64,000 nucleotides of DNA from Myxococcota bacterium (GTDB taxonomy: Bacteria; Myxococcota_A; UBA9160; UBA4427), in contig OZ252299.1 of the NCBI GenBank assembly GCA_965250285.1, positions 4,736,001-4,800,000 on the forward strand, given 5' to 3'. Under the pieces are notes generated by a model. The model was not told where the DNA came from. It saw only the letters and a list, made by a program, of their open reading frames with translations, and made no database searches. Below are positions 28,265 to 46,827 of the stretch, piece after piece. Every line of letters begins with the position of its first letter. The first letter of the stretch is position 1. A program made the translations under genes and the position numbers.

Positions 28265-31200
28265 TCACGCCGATTCTGCCTCGCCCGCCGCGCGGTCGAG
28301 CGCTTCGATCAAGAACGCCCGCATCTCGACCGGGTCGACGATCGCACCCAGCGAGCCGACCTCCTTGGCGCGTTCGACGCTGTGCACGTGGTCGAACTCG
28401 GCTGCCACCTCGGCCTGCTTCTCGAGCGTGACCTCCCGGAGCAGCTCGTCGAACTCTTCGCGCGCCCGGGCCGACGGGTTCCAGCGCAGCGCGCGCTGCT
28501 TCTCGGCCACGCGCGGATCGGCCACGGCGAGCGCGCGCACCTCGCGCACGAAGACGACGCTTGCCGCCGGGCCACCCCCGATCACCGATGCGAACGAACC
28601 GGTCAGTGCCGAAGCCTCGAGCGACGGGTTCAGCTCCTGGCTGAACACGACGTAAGCGCCGCCGTGGTAGCGCGACACGACGAGGAAGAGGATCGGCCCC
28701 TCGAAGTTCACGACCGCCCGAGCGATCTCGGCTCCGTACTCGAGCTGAAGCTTTCGAAGCGACTCGGGCGAACCGTCGAAGCCCGAGAGGTTCGCGAGGA
28801 GCACCACGGGCCGATTGCCGCTCGCCGCGTTGATCGCGCGAGCCACCTTCTTCGACGAGTACGGGAAGAGGGTGCCGCCGTTCCAGGCCTCGGGGCCGTC
28901 GATCGGCCGGTAGCCGTCACGGTCGACCGTGTGGCTCTCGATGCCGATCAGCTCGATGGCGCGACCACCGAGGTGCGTATCCCAGACGATCGCGGTCTCG
29001 CCGCCGACCATACCCTTCCAGCGCTCGAGATGTCCACCGTCCTGATCGACCAGTGCGTCCATCACGACGCGCATCGCGAAGGGTCGCTTGCGGCCGGGGT
29101 TCGTGTCGTCGTCGAAGATCTCGCCGACGTTGGTGAAGTCGAACGCGACGTCGGCGCGCAAGATCGGCGCATCGCCGATGTTGCGCGTGACTTGGTCCTT
29201 GGTCGGATACGGCCTCGGTCCGCGCTCCCCCGGCACGACGTAGGTGTACCGGTAGTGCTCGTACAGGATGTGGAACGCCTCGGAGACGCTGCGGGCGTAG
29301 AACTGCGCCTCGCCGTTCGGTCCCATGATGCGCTCGTAGCCGCCGATCGCGCCTTCGTCCTCGGCCGATACGCTCCCCGCGGCCTCGAGCGCGCGGCGGC
29401 CGGTCAGCACCATCGACGCCTTCTGGGTCATGATCAGAACGCCGCGGGTGTGCGGCAGCATCGTCGCGAGCGCGTCGAAGTACGCCTGCGCGCCGATGTT
29501 GACCCCGGCGACGATGACGTGGATCACCCCGTCGTTCTGCGTGAACTGAACGATCCGGCGCACGACCCGCGCCGTCGCATCGAGGTTCTCGGTTCCGCTG
29601 TCCATCGCGATGCGCGCGCCGCTCGACACCGCGACCCATTCGAGGGGCACGCCCAGCTCTTCGGCGAGATCCATCGCCGCGACGAGGCGATCGCACTCGG
29701 GTGCAGCGAGCGCACCCATGTGCTTCGTCGGGTCAGAGATCACGAGCACGCGCTTCATGCCCTCGGGCACCTTCGCGGTGGGCGTCGAGATCAAGCCGAA
29801 CACCACGCCCGCTTCGTTCAGGCCCGGTCCGCGGCCGGCAACACTCGTCGCCCGGGCGATGTTCGAGTCGGCATCGAGGTCGTACTCCTCGAACACACCG
29901 GCGGGCAGCGCCGGCCGTTCGGGATCACGGGCCGCATCGACCACCGACTGATCGCCCGTCGTCAGCATGCCGATGATCTCGAACGGGTAGATCTGGCGCG
30001 CACGCCGAGCGGCCACGACGGCCCGCTCGTGATCTTCGGCGGGGCGCAGAGGATCGAGCTGCGGCGGCCTGGCCTCGATCTCGGTCTGGTCACCGGTGTC
30101 GGTAATGACGATCTCGGTGGGACGCGCCGGCGCGTCGGGTTGATCGCGGTCGAGCAGGTTGAGTCGCACGATCACCTTCTCGAGGCCGAGATGCCGGGTC
30201 GAAGGTGCGAGGCGCCGAGCAACGTCATTCGCCTGGTCGAGATCGAGGAAGATCTCGGGCGCGACCGAGATCTTGATCCGATTCCACTGCAATCGCCGAC
30301 GGGGATCCCGCATCTGAAGGATCGATCGCAGGCTGCGCGTCGAGCGATTGAAGACGCGCTCGAACGCGGCCAGGTGGTGCGAGAGCTCCTTGCCCGACTC
30401 GGGTGAGCGGTCGCGTGCATCGGCGAGCACGAAGACCCGCTCGTCGCCCGGGACATCCTTGGCTCGGCCGTGGAAGGCGTAGATGCCTTCGTCCGAGGGG
30501 ATTCGCTCGAGCTCGAAGTTCGCGACGCGGTCGAGGCCGATTCGCTCGGCGGTCTCCGGGTGCAGGTCGTAGAGATCCGAGCGCATCACGTAGCCGCCGG
30601 AGACCGGCTCCCAGGTACGGAAGACGTGATCGATGCCGCCCTCGCGCGACAGCAGGCCGAGCGTGAAGCGACAATGCGGGGCGGCGGCCGACAGGGTTCG
30701 CTCGATGATGGGAGCCACCGCCTCGAGGTCGACCTCTTCGCCGGGCGGCACGACGACCTCGGCCGCGTGAATCGGCGTTCCGGGCGCGCGTTCGGCCATG
30801 CGACCGACGCCGCGACAGACGCGCTCCACCACGTCGGCGACGTCGCCGCTGCGCGCGATCGCCGCCATCACGAGACCGACCTCGGGATACTCGACACAGT
30901 GGATGCGGGTCTCGTCGACGATCGCCGTGCGATACGCGAGCGGCGACCGCGGCGCGTAGCGGCGCTGGGTGTGGGCGGCGAGCGCGATCTCGCTGCGCGC
31001 CGGATCGTCGAGCTCGATCCAATGACCGACTCGCTCGAAGACGCGACGCGGGGCCGCCGCGAGCTCGAGCAGCACCTCGGTCGGCGGCACGGTCAGCTCG
31101 GTCTCGGCCGACTCGAGCCACGCGTCGACGTTCTCCGAAGTCCGCGCAGCGCGTCGCTCGATGCCGGGCTGAAGGAAGCTCAGGTAGCTCGCCTCGAGGG

Positions 31201-33907
31201 CGGCGTCGGCGATGACGTCGCCGACCTGGGGACGCAGCCGGGCGATCCGGGCGAGCGTGAGAGCGAGCACCCGGTCGTGCTCGAGCACCACGCCGGCGTC
31301 GGCGAGCGCCGACAGCTGTCGCAACATGCCGAGGACGAGCTGATGGCGCAGCTTCGACTCGAGCCGAATCGACAGCATGCGCAGCACCGCCCGCTCGAGC
31401 GCACCGGAGGGCTCGAGATCGGTGATGCCGTAGTGACGCAGGGCCCCGCGCATCGCTTCGAGGAACTCTTCGGCGATGCCCTCGGTGCCGGCGCGCATGC
31501 GTCGGACGAACATGCGGAAGCGCGCGTCGTTCGAGGGGCCGAACTCACCCGAGACCGAGGCGCGCGGTGCCTTGATGAAGATCTCTTCGATGTCGGCGAA
31601 CGTCTCGAGCTCGTGTCGAATCTGCGCGAGCTCGAGAGCGAACTCACTCGGTAGATCCTCGGGCAGATCGGCTTCGAGCAGCGCTACGAGCCGCGCCGAG
31701 CGTTCGGCGTTCGCGTCGTAACCGAGCACGACGCGGCGAATCTCTTCGCGCACCGTGGCGGCGGCTTCGCGCCGCGCGTCGGGATCGGCGTTCGCGGCCG
31801 AGACCAGGGCGGGCGCCCCGAGCGGCCCTTCGGCGCCGGGCTCGAAGAGCAGCGCGAGCGGATCGACCTGCGCCGGCAGCTCGACGCGACCGGTCGCACT
31901 GCCTGCCTCGCCTTCATCGCGCGGCGTCTCGATCACGAGCAGCACGTCGCCGGCCGCCACCTGCTGACCGGCGTGCACGAGCACTTCGCTCACGGTGCCC
32001 GACACGGGCGCGCGGAAGCCGATCTCCATCTTCATCGCTTCGAGCAGGCCGAGCGGGTCGCCCGCCTCGACCTCGTCCCCCACCGCAACGCCCACCGACA
32101 CGACCATCGCCGGCGACGTCGACCGCACCTGGCCGGCCGTCTGCAACCCATAGCGATGCGCGATGCCATCGACCTCGAGGCGAAGCGACAGCTCGCTCGC
32201 GTCGTAGACCACGCGTCGCACTCGACCGTCGATTTCGAACCGGGCGCGGTGCTCGTCCTCTTCGCGAAGACGTGCCGAGACGACGCGACCGTCGAGGTGC
32301 ACGCGATACCGCCAAGAACCGATCGCGTAGACCATGACGCGATAGCTCTCGCCATCCTTCGAGAGGTCGACCTGCTGGCCCTCGCTCGGCGGGATCCGCT
32401 CGCGCGAGACCGCGCTCGAGTCAGCGAAGAAGAACTCCCGCGCGCGCGCCCGCGCCTGCTGATACGCGATGATCGCGGCGCCGACGAACGCGTCTTCGGC
32501 CAGACCGTCGGCCCGCGGCTCGGCTGCACGCCGCGCGTCGTTGAAGCCGTCGAGCCAGCGCGTGTCGACCGGGCCGGCCCGGACCGCTTCGGCGTCGAGC
32601 ACGTCGAGCAGGTAGCCCTTGTTCGTGGCCCCGCCCTCGACGACGAGCTCGAAGTCGCGCAGGGCCACGGCGAGTCGACCGCGCGCCTCTTCGCGGGTGT
32701 CGCCCGTCGCGATCACCTTGGCGATCAGGCTGTCGAAGTCGGAAGAAATGGTGGTGCCCGCGGTGACGCCCGAGTCGAGTCGGACGCGCGGCCCCAGCGC
32801 TGGGTCGAAGCACACGATCCGGCCCGGCGACGGCAGGAAGTCTTCGTCGGGGTCTTCGGCGCAGACGCGCGCTTCGAGCGCGACGCCCCGCTCCTGGATC
32901 TCGAGGCCCGAGATCGATTCGCCGCGTGCGATGCGGATCTGCGTCTGCACGAGATCGACGCCGGTGATCTCTTCGGTGATGCCGTGCTCGACCTGCAGGC
33001 GCGGATTGACCTCGAGAAAGTAGAACTGATCGCCCTCGAGCAGAAACTCGACCGTGCCGACGCCGCTGTACGAAACGTGCTTCGCCATGCGAACGGCCGA
33101 GGCCTCGATTGCATCGCGCACGGCGCGCGGGAGACCGGGCGGGGGCGCTTCTTCGAGCACCTTCTGGTTGCGACGCTGAACCGAGCAGTCGCGACTGCCC
33201 ACCGCGATCACGTGACCGTGCTGATCGGCCGCGATCTGCACCTCGATGTGTCGGCCGCCCGTGACGAGCTTCTCGCAGAAGAGATCGCCGTTGCCGAAGG
33301 CCGAGAGCGCCTCGGAGCTCGCCGATTCGAAGGCCGCCGGCAGATCCTCGGGCTCGAAGACGAGGCGAATCCCGCGCCCACCGCCGCCCGCCGTCGCCTT
33401 GACGACGACCGGGTAGCCGATCTGTTCGGCCTGCTCGACCGCGTCTTCGACGTTCTCGAGCGCACGCCCGCTCCACGCGGTGACGGGCACGCCCGCCTTC
33501 TCGGCGAGCTGCTTCGACGTGATCTTGTCGCCGAGCCCGGCCATTGCGTCGGCGCTCGGGCCGAGAAAAGCGATCCCCGCCTCGGCCAGCTTCGTCACGA
33601 ACTTCGGATCTTCGGCGACGAAGCCCCAACCGGGCCACACCGCATCGACGCGCATCTGCTTGAGCGCATCGATCACGCGCTCGTGGTTCAGGTAGGCGGC
33701 GACGGCGCCGTCGTCGCTCGGGATCTCGATGCTCTCATCGGCGTGGCGAACGAAGGGCGTGTCGCGGTCGGGGTCGGTGAAGATCGCGATGGCGGAGAGC
33801 TCCCGCCCCTCGACTGCACGCAGCGCCTTCACGGCGCGAATGCAGCGCATGGCGGCTTCACCGCGGTTCACGATACCGAGACGACGAATCGGGCGACCGA
33901 GCGTCAA
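28265..33907 (-). CDS. Single-chain multidomain biotin-dependent acyl-CoA carboxylase (BC-BCCP-central-CT), 1880 aa
   Basis: NRGEAA, WPGWGF.AE, GGGGRGIR, RDCSVQRRNQK, EVNPRLQVEH; biotinyl EAMKM; CT motifs SSGARI, LANLSGFDG, GGAYVVF. Confidence 0.92.
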   Translation of the reverse strand: MTLGRPIRRLGIVNRGEAAMRCIRAVKALRAVEGRELSAIAIFTDPDRDTPFVRHADESIEIPSDDGAVAAYLNHERVIDALKQMRVDAVWPGWGFVAEDPKFVTKLAEAGIAFLGPSADAMAGLGDKITSKQLAEKAGVPVTAWSGRALENVEDAVEQAEQIGYPVVVKATAGGGGRGIRLVFEPEDLPAAFESASSEALSAFGNGDLFCEKLVTGGRHIEVQIAADQHGHVIAVGSRDCSVQRRNQKVLEEAPPPGLPRAVRDAIEASAVRMAKHVSYSGVGTVEFLLEGDQFYFLEVNPRLQVEHGITEEITGVDLVQTQIRIARGESISGLEIQERGVALEARVCAEDPDEDFLPSPGRIVCFDPALGPRVRLDSGVTAGTTISSDFDSLIAKVIATGDTREEARGRLAVALRDFELVVEGGATNKGYLLDVLDAEAVRAGPVDTRWLDGFNDARRAAEPRADGLAEDAFVGAAIIAYQQARARAREFFFADSSAVSRERIPPSEGQQVDLSKDGESYRVMVYAIGSWRYRVHLDGRVVSARLREEDEHRARFEIDGRVRRVVYDASELSLRLEVDGIAHRYGLQTAGQVRSTSPAMVVSVGVAVGDEVEAGDPLGLLEAMKMEIGFRAPVSGTVSEVLVHAGQQVAAGDVLLVIETPRDEGEAGSATGRVELPAQVDPLALLFEPGAEGPLGAPALVSAANADPDARREAAATVREEIRRVVLGYDANAERSARLVALLEADLPEDLPSEFALELAQIRHELETFADIEEIFIKAPRASVSGEFGPSNDARFRMFVRRMRAGTEGIAEEFLEAMRGALRHYGITDLEPSGALERAVLRMLSIRLESKLRHQLVLGMLRQLSALADAGVVLEHDRVLALTLARIARLRPQVGDVIADAALEASYLSFLQPGIERRAARTSENVDAWLESAETELTVPPTEVLLELAAAPRRVFERVGHWIELDDPARSEIALAAHTQRRYAPRSPLAYRTAIVDETRIHCVEYPEVGLVMAAIARSGDVADVVERVCRGVGRMAERAPGTPIHAAEVVVPPGEEVDLEAVAPIIERTLSAAAPHCRFTLGLLSREGGIDHVFRTWEPVSGGYVMRSDLYDLHPETAERIGLDRVANFELERIPSDEGIYAFHGRAKDVPGDERVFVLADARDRSPESGKELSHHLAAFERVFNRSTRSLRSILQMRDPRRRLQWNRIKISVAPEIFLDLDQANDVARRLAPSTRHLGLEKVIVRLNLLDRDQPDAPARPTEIVITDTGDQTEIEARPPQLDPLRPAEDHERAVVAARRARQIYPFEIIGMLTTGDQSVVDAARDPERPALPAGVFEEYDLDADSNIARATSVAGRGPGLNEAGVVFGLISTPTAKVPEGMKRVLVISDPTKHMGALAAPECDRLVAAMDLAEELGVPLEWVAVSSGARIAMDSGTENLDATARVVRRIVQFTQNDGVIHVIVAGVNIGAQAYFDALATMLPHTRGVLIMTQKASMVLTGRRALEAAGSVSAEDEGAIGGYERIMGPNGEAQFYARSVSEAFHILYEHYRYTYVVPGERGPRPYPTKDQVTRNIGDAPILRADVAFDFTNVGEIFDDDTNPGRKRPFAMRVVMDALVDQDGGHLERWKGMVGGETAIVWDTHLGGRAIELIGIESHTVDRDGYRPIDGPEAWNGGTLFPYSSKKVARAINAASGNRPVVLLANLSGFDGSPESLRKLQLEYGAEIARAVVNFEGPILFLVVSRYHGGAYVVFSQELNPSLEASALTGSFASVIGGGPAASVVFVREVRALAVADPRVAEKQRALRWNPSARAREEFDELLREVTLEKQAEVAAEFDHVHSVERAKEVGSLGAIVDPVEMRAFLIEALDRAAGEAESA

Positions 33908-37089: not shown

Positions 37090-37556
37090 CGAGGTACTCC
37101 CATGCCGGAGAGTTCACCCGCACAGACCACGGTGCCGTCGTCGAGCCGCATCTCGACGTCGCACCGCAGCTTCTTGCGCCGGAAGAACTTCACCCGGCCC
37201 GTCGTCGTCACGCGATCCCCGGGCTTCACCATGCCACTGAACTCGACGTTCGCGTCGGTGAAGACGGTGATCAGCTTCTCGACCTCCTCTTGTGAATGGT
37301 CGAGCGCGTAGAGATAGATGCCGAACGCGACGACACCCGCCTGCGCCATCGTCTCGATGAGAATCACACCCGGCGTGATCGGATTGCCGGGGAAGTGACC
37401 GCGGTAGAAGTCCTCGTCGGCCTTGAACGTATAGCTGGCGACGATGTGCTCGCGGTCGAGCTCGGCGATCTCGTCGATGAAGCGGAAGGGGGCCTGCTGG
37501 GGCACGAGCCCGAGCACCTCTTCTTTCGACAGCTCGACGCCTGCGATCTCAGCCAC
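37086..37556 (-). CDS. FabZ-family 3-hydroxyacyl-ACP dehydratase
   Basis: PQQAPFRFID, FYRGHFPGNPITPGVILIETMAQ, VKPGD. Confidence 0.9.
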   Translation of the reverse strand: MAEIAGVELSKEEVLGLVPQQAPFRFIDEIAELDREHIVASYTFKADEDFYRGHFPGNPITPGVILIETMAQAGVVAFGIYLYALDHSQEEVEKLITVFTDANVEFSGMVKPGDRVTTTGRVKFFRRKKLRCDVEMRLDDGTVVCAGELSGMGVPR

Positions 37557-38286
37557 CGTACATGCCCCCATTCACGTGCACGACCGTGCCGTTCACGTAG
37601 CTCGCCCGCGTCGAAAGGTAGGCGACGACGTCGGCGACCTCGTCGGCCGTGCCCATGCGGCCCTGGGGAATGCGCGAGAGGATCGCCTCCTTCACCTCTT
37701 CGGGCAGCTCCTCGGTCATCTCAGTGTCGATGAAGCCCGGTGCCACCGAGTTCACCAGGATCTCACGCCCCGCGAGCTCTTGCGCGAGGGATTTCGTGAA
37801 CGCATCGAGGCCGGCCTTCACCATCGTGTACGGGATCTGGCCCGGATTGCCGGTGTGCCCGACGACGCTCGAGATGTTCACGATGCGTCCATTGCCCTTG
37901 CGGAACATGAAGCGACGCAGCACCAGCTTGGTGAGATACCAGCTGCCGCGCGCGACGCCCGCGACATCGTCGTACTGATCGAGGTTCATCGACAGCATCG
38001 GTGCATTGATGTTGAAGCCCGCGTTGTTCACGAGCACGTCGACGCGTCCAGCCTCTTCCTTCAACGTCTTGATCAGCGCATCGACCGACTCGGGGTCGGT
38101 CAGATCGGCCTTGACGGTGAATGCGTCGGGCAGCTCGGCTGCGAGCTTCTTCGCCTTCTCCTCGCTCGAGCGATGGTGCACGGCCACACGGAAGCCCTCG
38201 GCCGCAAGCGCACGACAGCACGCCGCACCGATGCCGGTGCCTCCACCCGTCACGAGGGCGACGGGCTTTTCTTCGGGTTCGCTCAA
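37549..38286 (-). CDS. fabG: 3-oxoacyl-ACP reductase (FabG-like)
   Basis: TGGGTGIG, NNAG, NISSVVG..GNPGQ..Y...K, VAPGFIDTEMT, VNGGMY. Confidence 0.88.
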   Translation of the reverse strand: MSEPEEKPVALVTGGGTGIGAACCRALAAEGFRVAVHHRSSEEKAKKLAAELPDAFTVKADLTDPESVDALIKTLKEEAGRVDVLVNNAGFNINAPMLSMNLDQYDDVAGVARGSWYLTKLVLRRFMFRKGNGRIVNISSVVGHTGNPGQIPYTMVKAGLDAFTKSLAQELAGREILVNSVAPGFIDTEMTEELPEEVKEAILSRIPQGRMGTADEVADVVAYLSTRASYVNGTVVHVNGGMYGG

Positions 38287-38289
38287 CGC

Positions 38290-38571
38290 CTAACGCTCCA
38301 TTCGGCCGCCCCGGCTGTTTTCGGAGGGCCAGGGGGCGCCTGCGGCGGGCGCAGGCGCACATTCATTCTCATCGCTCCATCTGGCCGCCGCGACTGTTTT
38401 CGGAGGGCCAAGGGGCGCCTGCAGCGGGCGCAGGCACACATTCATTCTCATCGCTCCATCTGACCGCCGCGACTGTTTTCGGAGGGCCAAGGGGCGCCTG
38501 CAGCGGGCGCAGGCACACATTCATTCTCATCGCTCCATCTGACCGCCGCGACTGTTTTCGGAGGGCCAAGG
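38290..38571 (-). repeat. 79-bp tandem repeat (about 3.6 copies) duplicating the last 15 codons of fabA plus a GC-rich hairpin spacer
   Basis: Units start at 38290, 38369, 38448 and 38527 (the last is fabA's own 3' end); spacer hairpin GCGCCTGCG-GCGGG-CGCAGGCGC at 38336-38358. Confidence 0.95.
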
Positions 38572-39135
38572 AAAGTCCGGATAGTCGATGTCCTTGAAGA
38601 GGCCGACGCGCGCGCCCTTCACGGTGTAGATCTCCTGGTCGTCGACGATCACCTTCGCGTCGCCGACGATCATCGAAGCACCCGCGCTCTCGAGGGTCGT
38701 GTAGCGCTTGACCTGCAGCTCGTAGCGCACGACCGAGTCGTGGGGACGGATCTGGCCGAAGAACTCGACCTCGCCGCAGCCGAGTGCGCGACCCGTGCCC
38801 AACCCGCCGCGCCAGTTGCAGTAGAAGCCGAAGAGCTGCCAGACCCCGTCGACGCCGAGGCAGCCCGGCTGCACCGGATCACCGAGGAAGTGACACTGGA
38901 AGAACCAGTCGTCGAGGTGGATGTCGCGCTCCGCGACCAGCGTGCCCCGGCTCTTGTTCGCCGTGATCTCGGTGATGCGGTCGACCATGAGCATCGGCGG
39001 CAAGGGCAGGCGCGCCTTGAAATCGGCCGGCGGATCTTTCACCAGGCGTCCGTACGCGAATGCGAGCAGCTCGGTCTTGCTGAACGAAGTGCGGCTCAAG
39101 AACTCGTCGTAGGTGATTGCGTCGCCGGGCGTCAT
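38527..39135 (-). CDS. fabA: 3-hydroxyacyl-ACP dehydratase/isomerase FabA
   Basis: RLPLPPMLMVDRI, WFFQCHFLGDPVQPGCLGVD..WQL.GF, GRALG.GEV.F.GQ, ARVGLF. Confidence 0.93.
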   Translation of the reverse strand: MTPGDAITYDEFLSRTSFSKTELLAFAYGRLVKDPPADFKARLPLPPMLMVDRITEITANKSRGTLVAERDIHLDDWFFQCHFLGDPVQPGCLGVDGVWQLFGFYCNWRGGLGTGRALGCGEVEFFGQIRPHDSVVRYELQVKRYTTLESAGASMIVGDAKVIVDDQEIYTVKGARVGLFKDIDYPDFPWPSENSRGGQMER

Positions 39136-45694: not shown

Positions 45695-46062
45695 GTATCC
45701 CTGCTTTCCTCAAGTTGTCAGGCCGTCATTGCGTGCCTGAGGTTTCGGGGGGGCAGCCGTTCCGGGCAGGATGCGGGCTTTCCAGCCCGAATCGAACCAG
45801 GACGGCGGCAATGATGTGGTGTCCCGTGGTTCTCTGCAAGCGGTGAAGCCTGCGAGTCGCACCCGATCGGGCCGTTCTGCGGCACATGTCGGCAATCACA
45901 CCCGCAGCCCGCGCCCCGATTCGGATGTCCAGCGGCCCCACTCCGCGACCTGGATCACACCGAGGCGGATTCGGCCGCACAGTCAGCAGTGATCAGGGCT
46001 CGGGTTCGGCTGGCGAGCGACCGGTGATCTGGGCTCGGATGCGGCTCGCGAGCGACGTGTGA

Positions 46063-46827
46063 TCAGGGCCCGGGTACGGCTGACTTCGGAAGTCCGAGTG
46101 CCTCGAGCATGAGTGCCTGCAGCTCGGGCGCTTCGGCGTGACGCTCGAGACCGTCCGATAGAGCGCGCAACGCTGCGCGGCGGTCTTCGGCATCGAGCAG
46201 CGCGCGGCCCAGCCTCGCATCCAGATCGACGCGATCGGGGTCGGCTTCGATCGCTGCGCGCAGTGCCTCGATCGAAGCCGCTTCGTCGCCCGCGGCCAGA
46301 GCGGCCTCGCATTCGAGCACCAGGAGCTGCGCACGAACCGGCCCGGCCTCGACATGCGCGCAGTCTTCGGTCGCGTCGATGCGATCGAGCAGCTCGCCGG
46401 CACCGAGCTGCGAAGCCTCAACGCGGGCGGATGCAGCCGCCAACCACAGATCGCATCGCTCCCGCGGCGCCAGCGCGCGCGTCGACGGCTCGCCGATCGC
46501 CGTCGCCCGGTCGTCGAGCGCGACTGCCTCGTCGAACGACTGCTGAGCGATACGGACGCGCGCGAGGCCATCGAGCACGCGGGGATCGTCGGGCAACGCC
46601 TCACCGGCCTGTTGATACTTCTTGGCCGCGTCTTCGAGGCGACCGCGCGCAGCGGCGACGTCGGCCTCCTGCAAGGCGCGCTCTGCCGCCTGGTTCGACT
46701 TCGCAGACGGGTCGGCCGGATCGGCCGGACCGAGCAGCGCCTTGCAGCCGAAGGCACCAAAGGCTGCCAACAGGGTCAGGATCAGAGGAAGCCGACGGCG
46801 AACGCCGTCGCGATCGCGTCGAGTCAT
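46063..46827 (-). CDS. TPR-repeat lipoprotein
   Basis: Lipobox AFGC; helical TPR-like repeats; ATGA overlap with the upstream gene. Confidence 0.75.
   Translation of the reverse strand: MTRRDRDGVRRRLPLILTLLAAFGAFGCKALLGPADPADPSAKSNQAAERALQEADVAAARGRLEDAAKKYQQAGEALPDDPRVLDGLARVRIAQQSFDEAVALDDRATAIGEPSTRALAPRERCDLWLAAASARVEASQLGAGELLDRIDATEDCAHVEAGPVRAQLLVLECEAALAAGDEAASIEALRAAIEADPDRVDLDARLGRALLDAEDRRAALRALSDGLERHAEAPELQALMLEALGLPKSAVPGP

Follow-up and report, generated by a model that had tools for sequence, protein, structure and literature searches.

A tandemly repeated fabA gene end and a genome-wide class of arrays with quantised unit length in a Myxococcota genome

The fabA-fabG junction described here lies on the minus strand of the window, by which we mean the whole 64,000-nt stretch of DNA that was analysed. 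The genes around it are a fabH-like KS III, fabA, fabG, a fabZ-like gene, a fabF-like KS, an acyltransferase, a PPTase and a fused acetyl-CoA carboxylase; this last, at window 28265-33907, is a single chain of about 1870 aa that joins biotin carboxylase, carrier and carboxyltransferase and ends the fab operon. TRF reports an array at 38294-38571 with period 79, 3.5 copies, 95% matches, zero indels and a score of 493, which far outscores the other rows among the 21 TRF rows of the window. Read on the minus strand, the last 15 codons of fabA are present four times, with three 34-nt spacers between the copies:

38527..39135, minus strand: fabA, 3-hydroxyacyl-ACP dehydratase/isomerase, 202 aa (NF003509, 208 bits against a cut-off of 124; PF07977)
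38527..38571, minus strand: copy 1 of the 45-nt tail, the coding fabA end (PWPSENSRGGQMER and stop), with the stop within an ATGA overlap
38493..38526, minus strand: spacer 1, 34 nt, genome-unique, with a 9-bp hairpin at 38494-38516
38448..38492, minus strand: copy 2, same sequence as copy 1
38414..38447, minus strand: spacer 2, same sequence as spacer 1
38369..38413, minus strand: copy 3, with a single silent change
38335..38368, minus strand: spacer 3, with two T/C differences from spacers 1 and 2 and a stronger hairpin
38290..38334, minus strand: distal copy (PWPSENSRGGRMER and stop), an old alternative fabA end, 9 nt off copy 1
38296..38299, minus strand: predicted fabG ribosome-binding site GGAG, inside the distal copy, 9 nt before the TTG
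38290..38520, minus strand: 76-aa ORF through three registers, its stop being the distal TAG, with no Pfam or NCBIfam match
37549..38286, minus strand: fabG, 3-oxoacyl-ACP reductase, TTG start (ATG in relatives)

A first-pass annotation of this DNA had described a 79-bp array of the fabA C-terminus, each unit made of the last 15 fabA codons plus a 34-nt spacer, and both TRF and a copy-by-copy comparison confirm that description. The progressive divergence away from fabA that it also claimed is instead stepwise, with 0, 1 and 9 nt of 45 differing in successive copies. All seven codon changes listed for the distal copy were found, six of them silent when the stop is included, and that copy does end 3 nt before fabG, in the order TAG, GCG, fabG TTG; the ORF said to cross the three registers likewise exists. 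A REP-like hairpin had been proposed for the spacer: the hairpin is present, but its sequence is not dispersed, so the REP-like label does not hold. This 9-bp hairpin folds better than shuffles (z -3.2 and -4.4). For the whole array unit, shuffled sequences fold equally well (z -0.18), and a search of the coding strand at the locus for a terminator- or promoter-like site found none.

Copy number, for which the annotation had proposed a read-depth check, was followed in Logan contigs of three runs (X1-X3), all from a single study that may include the source sample. The repeat unitig runs at about twice the depth of single-copy pieces in all three (79 against 41 and 34 in X1, 76 against 50 and 47 in X2, 390 against 190 and 185 in X3), with the loop k-mer at single depth in X1 and X2, and the contig graph and depths match the assembled copy number. 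The distal copy shows no other letters in the X1-X3 contigs, and no joint that skips a unit is found in those of any run, contigs being products that drop rare variants.

The close relatives of the source genome (G000) are labelled mostly as Myxococcota or Deltaproteobacteria MAGs, and G001 is the sole same-genus genome compared. G001 carries a 76-bp array with a 31-nt spacer at the same fabA-fabG junction. All 28 fabA loci from other genera are without an array, and in most of them fabA finishes with GGRMER and a stop that overlaps the start of fabG. In most family fabA tails the penultimate Arg is the rare AGG, and GGGAGG stands 8 nt before the overlapping fabG start; this GGGAGG inside fabA is likely the fabG ribosome-binding site of the family, a prediction under which the site has been released in this genus. 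Among 84 further loci, 51 with fabG behind fabA and 33 with no fabG in the locus, a duplicated fabA tail occurs in two of the 51 fabA-fabG loci. One of these (L115) has the same junction as G001 and is not independent. The other (L137), from another lineage with 73% fabA identity, carries a separate 35-bp duplication of the same ATGA junction which, read by hand, makes a one-unit relay ORF; this lineage may share the duplication process. The same fabA type is also seen in MAGs labelled Gemmatimonadota, Acidobacteriota and others, often directly before a fabZ-like gene and with no fabG, a spread across labelled phyla that likely reflects horizontal transfer of the operon.

The array is missing from two metagenome contigs, L112 and L113, that fall within the genus-level clade (support 100/99), and the number of spacers is 3 in G000, 2 in G001 and 0 in each of these contigs. 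The fabA of L112 ends in the proximal form, with Gln and the ATGA overlap. L113 is 98% identical to G001 in both fabA and fabG, and its fabA ends in the distal form, TAG GCG ATG, 1 of 48 nt away from the G001 distal copy and 6 of 45 away from the G001 coding copy. The distal copy keeps the Arg of most family members where the present fabA has Gln, and the G000 and G001 distal copies differ at 5 of 48 nt, all silently, while four-fold sites differ at 41%. The annotation had suggested that the distal copy represents a former or alternative 3' end of fabA and that the fabA ends of relatives should be compared with it. That comparison supports the suggestion: the family Arg is kept, and because the array-free L113 really ends its fabA with a form close to the G001 distal copy, the distal copy is able to serve as a fabA end.

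The simplest history is one old duplication followed by two losses, in an order that we infer. Independent duplications from an L113-like ancestor would require several parallel changes. L113 carries the Gln codon, and a simple collapse of the G001 array needs one extra change to produce it; as a metagenome contig, L113 could itself be an assembler collapse. The grouping of G000 and L112 as sisters appears in the fabA tree only (89/85), the joint tree does not resolve it, and the position of L112 is weakly supported. Being old and shared, the fabA array is unusual among the arrays described below.

Five of the six changed sense codons at the fabA locus are silent, against 24% expected (p 0.004). 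At Pro 1, Ser 7 and Arg 8 the G000 distal copy agrees with G001 and L113, which places these changes on the coding side. For Ser codon 4, the four G000 copies all use TCC and the three G001 copies all use AGY, and Gly codon 10 is species-specific and common to all copies within each species, a pattern which shows that copies overwrote each other after the species split. The last 18 nt of the distal copy, inside which the predicted fabG ribosome-binding site lies, hold one interspecies difference. Homogenisation with the coding copy and the fabG ribosome-binding site largely explain the silent bias, and no special element is needed; with the coding-side changes, they account for the mere 5 of 48 differences between species at a locus where four-fold sites differ at 41%. 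Genome-wide the bias is slight: among 121 single changes in 49 arrays with at least 4 codons and at most 1% indels, 51 are silent, against 30% under neutrality. Transitions dominate the differences between copies (253/463), as in natural decay.

The fabA array belongs to a genome-wide class of arrays with quantised unit length, a feature that the first reading had missed. We compared 218 TRF arrays (non-overlapping, 25-200 bp, score ≥80, matches ≥70%) with 5167 genes from the analysis's own caller, in which starts are less reliable than stops: 75 arrays span a stop only, 11 span both ends and 6 a start only, where random placement predicts about equal numbers of stop- and start-spanning arrays. 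Two detectors combined give 207 arrays with units of 33-46 or 69-86 bp, of which 90 span a stop and 21 a start. A second member of the class lies in the window:

45989..46082, minus strand: 35-bp x 2.7 array over the stop of the gene ending at 46063

A general polarity of divergence is rejected by the 27 arrays in which it was scored, the last copy being more diverged in 8, less diverged in 11 and tied in 8. Hairpins are not a general array trait either, since the DNA behind the stop folds no better than at control gene ends (p 0.71). By plain counts, the leading strand carries 32 of 72 array genes and 55% of genes overall. The right edge of the unit tends to fall just behind the stop, a trend at p 0.07-0.08 for 43 short units, with only 6 long units at hand.

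Unit lengths were also counted with a period-independent detector that requires 20 of 22 matches at lag P. Non-coding events whose length is not a multiple of 3 number 7.0 per period at 33-38, 5.8 at 39-46, 0.2, 0.17 and 0 across 47-68, 2.0 and 2.9 across 69-86, and 0 at 87-100. The peaks have means of 39.0±3.7 bp (n=60) and 77.2±4.1 bp (n=30), with a smaller group at 12-26. Of 24 long units, 22 show no similarity between their two halves and so formed at double length, and many simply repeat a gene end; an origin of the 77-bp units as dimers of 39-bp units was seen in only 2 of 24 and is rejected. This length ladder is independent of the question of stop-targeting. Two further observations were made in G000: an 80-bp x 3.5 array at G000:C1:3650-3925 has an ATGA junction, a perfect three-step relay and a decayed unit middle, and stands before a gene that, from its N-terminus, we take to be ruvA-like; and a separate dispersed family of 129-135 bp, in tandem pairs or fours, lies outside the ladder (G000:C1:7164-7424, 1096153-1096425, 1539235-1539521, 5069502-5069767 and 5764131-5764670).

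The ladder appears restricted in lineage. In G001, 481 kb of the 5.8 Mb yielded 15 events of 33-46 bp; six other-genus genomes, sampled as one stretch of 117-140 kb per genome and 777 kb in total, yielded 0. Among 18 G001 arrays, 2 have a G000 array nearby and 4 are without a mapped orthologue; most sit at sites that are array-free in G000, so the process is still generating arrays. A 37-bp x 3.2 array in G001 (L033:6719-6836) duplicates the stop of fabG and shares a 7-nt microhomology with the start of fabZ; it is absent in G000, and its distal copy has amino-acid-changing differences.

Selection alone favours the stop-spanning position, because such a duplication leaves the gene whole. At convergent junctions, which are promoter-free, 49.5% of arrays would be expected to span a stop and 32 of 40 do, with p 4e-7 for all gaps, 0.011 for gaps up to 300 nt and 0.056 for gaps up to 150 nt. 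The excess weakens once long gaps are dropped and so does not establish that mutation is focused on stops; copies anchored in coding DNA also remain recognisable longer.

The reading that we favour, and consider probable, is that the fabA array, one of about 90 stop-spanning arrays of the 39- or 78-bp class in this genome, arose in place by duplication of a junction at which fabA and fabG once overlapped, with genus-specific slippage as its likely source, and was probably kept as harmless to fabA and fabG. An ancestor with the family ATGA overlap would have duplicated the junction once, before the split of G000 and G001. The upstream copy would have remained the gene, its Arg changing to Gln, and the distal copy would have acquired a 7-nt shift (TAG GCG) that set GGAG 9 nt ahead of where fabG starts. 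As the array expanded and contracted again and again, downstream copies would have been overwritten with the coding copy, leaving mostly silent differences. The unconstrained spacer would have decayed beyond recognition; neither flank matches it (p 0.17-0.44), and for that reason its origin as decayed flank DNA is presumptive. Loss of the array would have yielded L113, with its distal-type end, and probably L112, with its proximal-type end. No function beyond tolerance would be needed, the array likely being retained since fabA stays intact and fabG translatable, and mini-ORFs born of ATGA would hand ribosomes to fabG.

A broader proposal, possible but in our judgement doubtful, is that an undescribed ruler in the DNA metabolism of this genus sets duplications in single or double steps of about 39 bp with a preference for gene ends, and that selection keeps relays, so that MIRU-like coupling units arise de novo at many operon junctions with no mobile element involved. 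A footprint of a DNA-bound protein or of a polymerase as the source of the 39-bp step is a guess. Several candidate causes were tried and rejected. A histone ruler finds no support in PF00808, which is over cut-off in 0 of 37 family genomes including G000, or in PF09123, which gave no match in G000. The PF00808 histone-fold is over cut-off in 20 of 24 genomes of the order's other families, and a family-level loss of bacterial histone is possible. A Cas1 ruler or CRISPR scar is set aside because the fabA spacers are nearly identical and G000 has one cas1-like match with no CRISPR array found; a search of G001 (83% complete) gave no Cas1 match. The Cas1-family match in G000 (G000:C1:3245666-3246523) lies beside five similar small secreted-type genes (3242021-3245023). 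Repair-gene loss is rejected as well: of the genes searched, MutL, ExoVII, SSB and a DHH protein occur in both G000 and G001, G000 also has MutS and the 5' nuclease of Pol I, and no genus-specific pattern was seen. Ku and Rad52-family annealing proteins were not found in G000 (95% complete), and no Rad52-family protein was found in 5 of 5 genomes.

The first-pass annotation held that the units preserve translational coupling, and at the level of sequence a formal stop-start relay to fabG can indeed be traced through two predicted mini-ORFs:

38369..38530, minus strand: predicted relay mini-ORF 1, 53 aa, starting in the fabA ATGA overlap and stopping at the copy 3 TGA
38283..38372, minus strand: predicted relay mini-ORF 2, 29 aa, starting in the copy 3 ATGA and stopping in the TTGA over the fabG start

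Twenty arrays lie within 25 nt of the next gene on the same strand, and in 14 of them its start overlaps the first stop. A relay or in-frame path is kept in 13 of these 14 overlap arrays, and 5 of the 6 non-overlap arrays have no such path; a luxE-like array counts as a failure under the relay rule. A period that leaves 2 when divided by 3, at which each unit is one mini-ORF, is found in 9 of the 14 overlap arrays (p 0.017 against one third; Fisher p 0.075 against the other 90 arrays). These counts are modest evidence that selection for coupling may act at gene junctions.

We think it unlikely that the array goes further and is a selected, copy-number-variable tuner (contingency locus) of fabG, fabZ and fabF expression. 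Such a role would fit the retention of an array in two species 59% identical at four-fold sites, with units that differ by exactly 3 nt (79 against 76) so that the frame is the same, a relay at 3 spacers in G000 and, read by hand, at 2 in G001, and spacers that can fold in both. Against it, the array is absent from L112, L113 and the 28 other-genus loci, no copy-number variant was seen in the contigs of the three runs, about 90 similar arrays lie on unrelated genes, and the DNA behind array stops folds as at control gene ends.

The annotation had read the array as MIRU-like and as the work of a gene-end-duplicating element. A MIRU- or REP-like mobile element that enters gene junctions and duplicates the gene end we now regard as very improbable. 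The MIRU-like unit size and intra-operon position, the mini-ORF ending in a -4 overlap with fabG and the hairpin within the spacer would all suit such an element. The proposed genome-wide search for the spacer beside other gene ends nevertheless turned up no second copy in 6.25 Mb: blastn of the unit, the array and the spacer against the genome gave as best other match 16 nt, at E 0.18. Homology between the 31-nt G001 spacer and the G000 spacer is not detectable (p 0.17). When 166 array units were compared by blastn with each other and with the genome, 3 pairs were similar and 16 units had a match elsewhere, so the arrays mostly do not share a sequence, and many reproduce local DNA exactly and contain nothing foreign. 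An Rfam search of the array returned one chance-level match (E 0.42). The mobile-element reading is already largely refuted.

There is likewise little to recommend the idea that an integrative element supplied the upstream tail as a new 3' end, in the manner of an att-type scar, and later decayed to 34 nt and was amplified. The 6 of 45 nt by which the G001 coding tail differs from L113, in genes 98% identical, are more than expected (p 3e-4) and all silent, and the spacer appears foreign; but the upstream tail still finishes with CGA TGA, the ancestral state of the family, and is like that of the insertion-free L112, the 79-bp unit length sits on the genome-wide ladder, and gene calls around the array give the fab operon only. 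An assembly artefact can be dismissed almost with certainty, for although the assembly is single-contig and the three runs share one study and may contain the source sample, the contig graph and depths agree with the assembled array, and an independent same-genus genome carries an array at the same junction.

Taken as a locally born duplication of the fabA-fabG junction, the array is by structure a minisatellite: its unit is locus-specific and repeated head to tail, and, as in a VNTR, copy number differs between related genomes (3, 2, 0 and 0 spacers). The fabA locus alone is a modest minisatellite, and the genome-wide class matters more. The locus shows how a gene can swap between two stored versions of its 3' end, the arrays show that MIRU-like, coupling-preserving mini-ORFs can arise in place, and they are usable as strain-typing markers for this uncultured lineage.

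REP and BIME sequences place a hairpin just after a stop codon, in tandem, and have a dispersed palindromic consensus. The fabA array is like them in being tandem and in having a hairpin downstream of the stop codon (z -3.2 and -4.4, as above), and differs in that it lacks a dispersed consensus with many palindromic copies in the genome, hairpins moreover not being general among this genome's arrays.

MIRU unit sizes are similar to that of the fabA array. As far as the accessible part of PMC12548453 describes MIRUs, the likeness extends to the intra-operon site and a mini-ORF with a -4 overlap to the next gene, here the predicted ORF 38283-38372. The same part of that source presents MIRUs as a dispersed, apparently mobile family that inserts at start codons, whereas the fabA unit is unique, a local gene-end copy; it belongs to no dispersed family of shared sequence, and the units of the class copy local DNA, with 90 of 207 arrays spanning stops and 21 starts. 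The fabA array would thus resemble a MIRU in keeping coupling, yet is not a MIRU.

Microhomology-mediated duplication in S. pombe (bioRxiv 10.1101/2020.03.03.972455) is, in the portion of that work available, local, seated at short direct repeats and reversible by collapse, to which the 7-nt overlap of the G001 fabG array and the array-free relatives are parallels here; that system is eukaryotic, and the same portion mentions no fixed length step or gene-end focus. Methanobrevibacter ruminantium and Clostridioides difficile have unique non-coding satellites with long, mutually unrelated units and an origin in place, as here, according to the accessible sections of PMC6749651, which describe no length ladder or relation to gene ends, and in which the satellites of Leptospira interrogans are transposed families. 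A literature search, with subscription papers mostly outside its coverage, returned no report of stop-spanning or laddered bacterial duplications.

The closest described phenomenon, judged from the main text of PMC8161180 (Subirana and Messeguer) so far as it was available, is the constant-length, variable-sequence repeats of Bacillus, of 52 nt and 20-21 nt. They and the ladder arrays are alike in having unrelated sequences with a shared unit length, in being lineage-restricted and in having a cause that is unexplained. The arrays described here differ, relative to the same text, in their broad 33-46 band with a double-length harmonic and 2-6 copies, in being local DNA copies and not families, and in their concentration on stop codons; 'stop codon', 'intergenic' and 'downstream' do not occur in that main text. 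The strict lengths of 20-21 or 52 nt are not those of the ladder, which has 39±4 and 77±4 and, outside genes, almost nothing at 47-54. With their harmonic step, these roughly 200 independent duplications form a large natural sample for the question of fixed-length, free-sequence repeats that the two cases share, and whatever mechanism is put forward has to reproduce the directly measured step of 39 and 77 bp.
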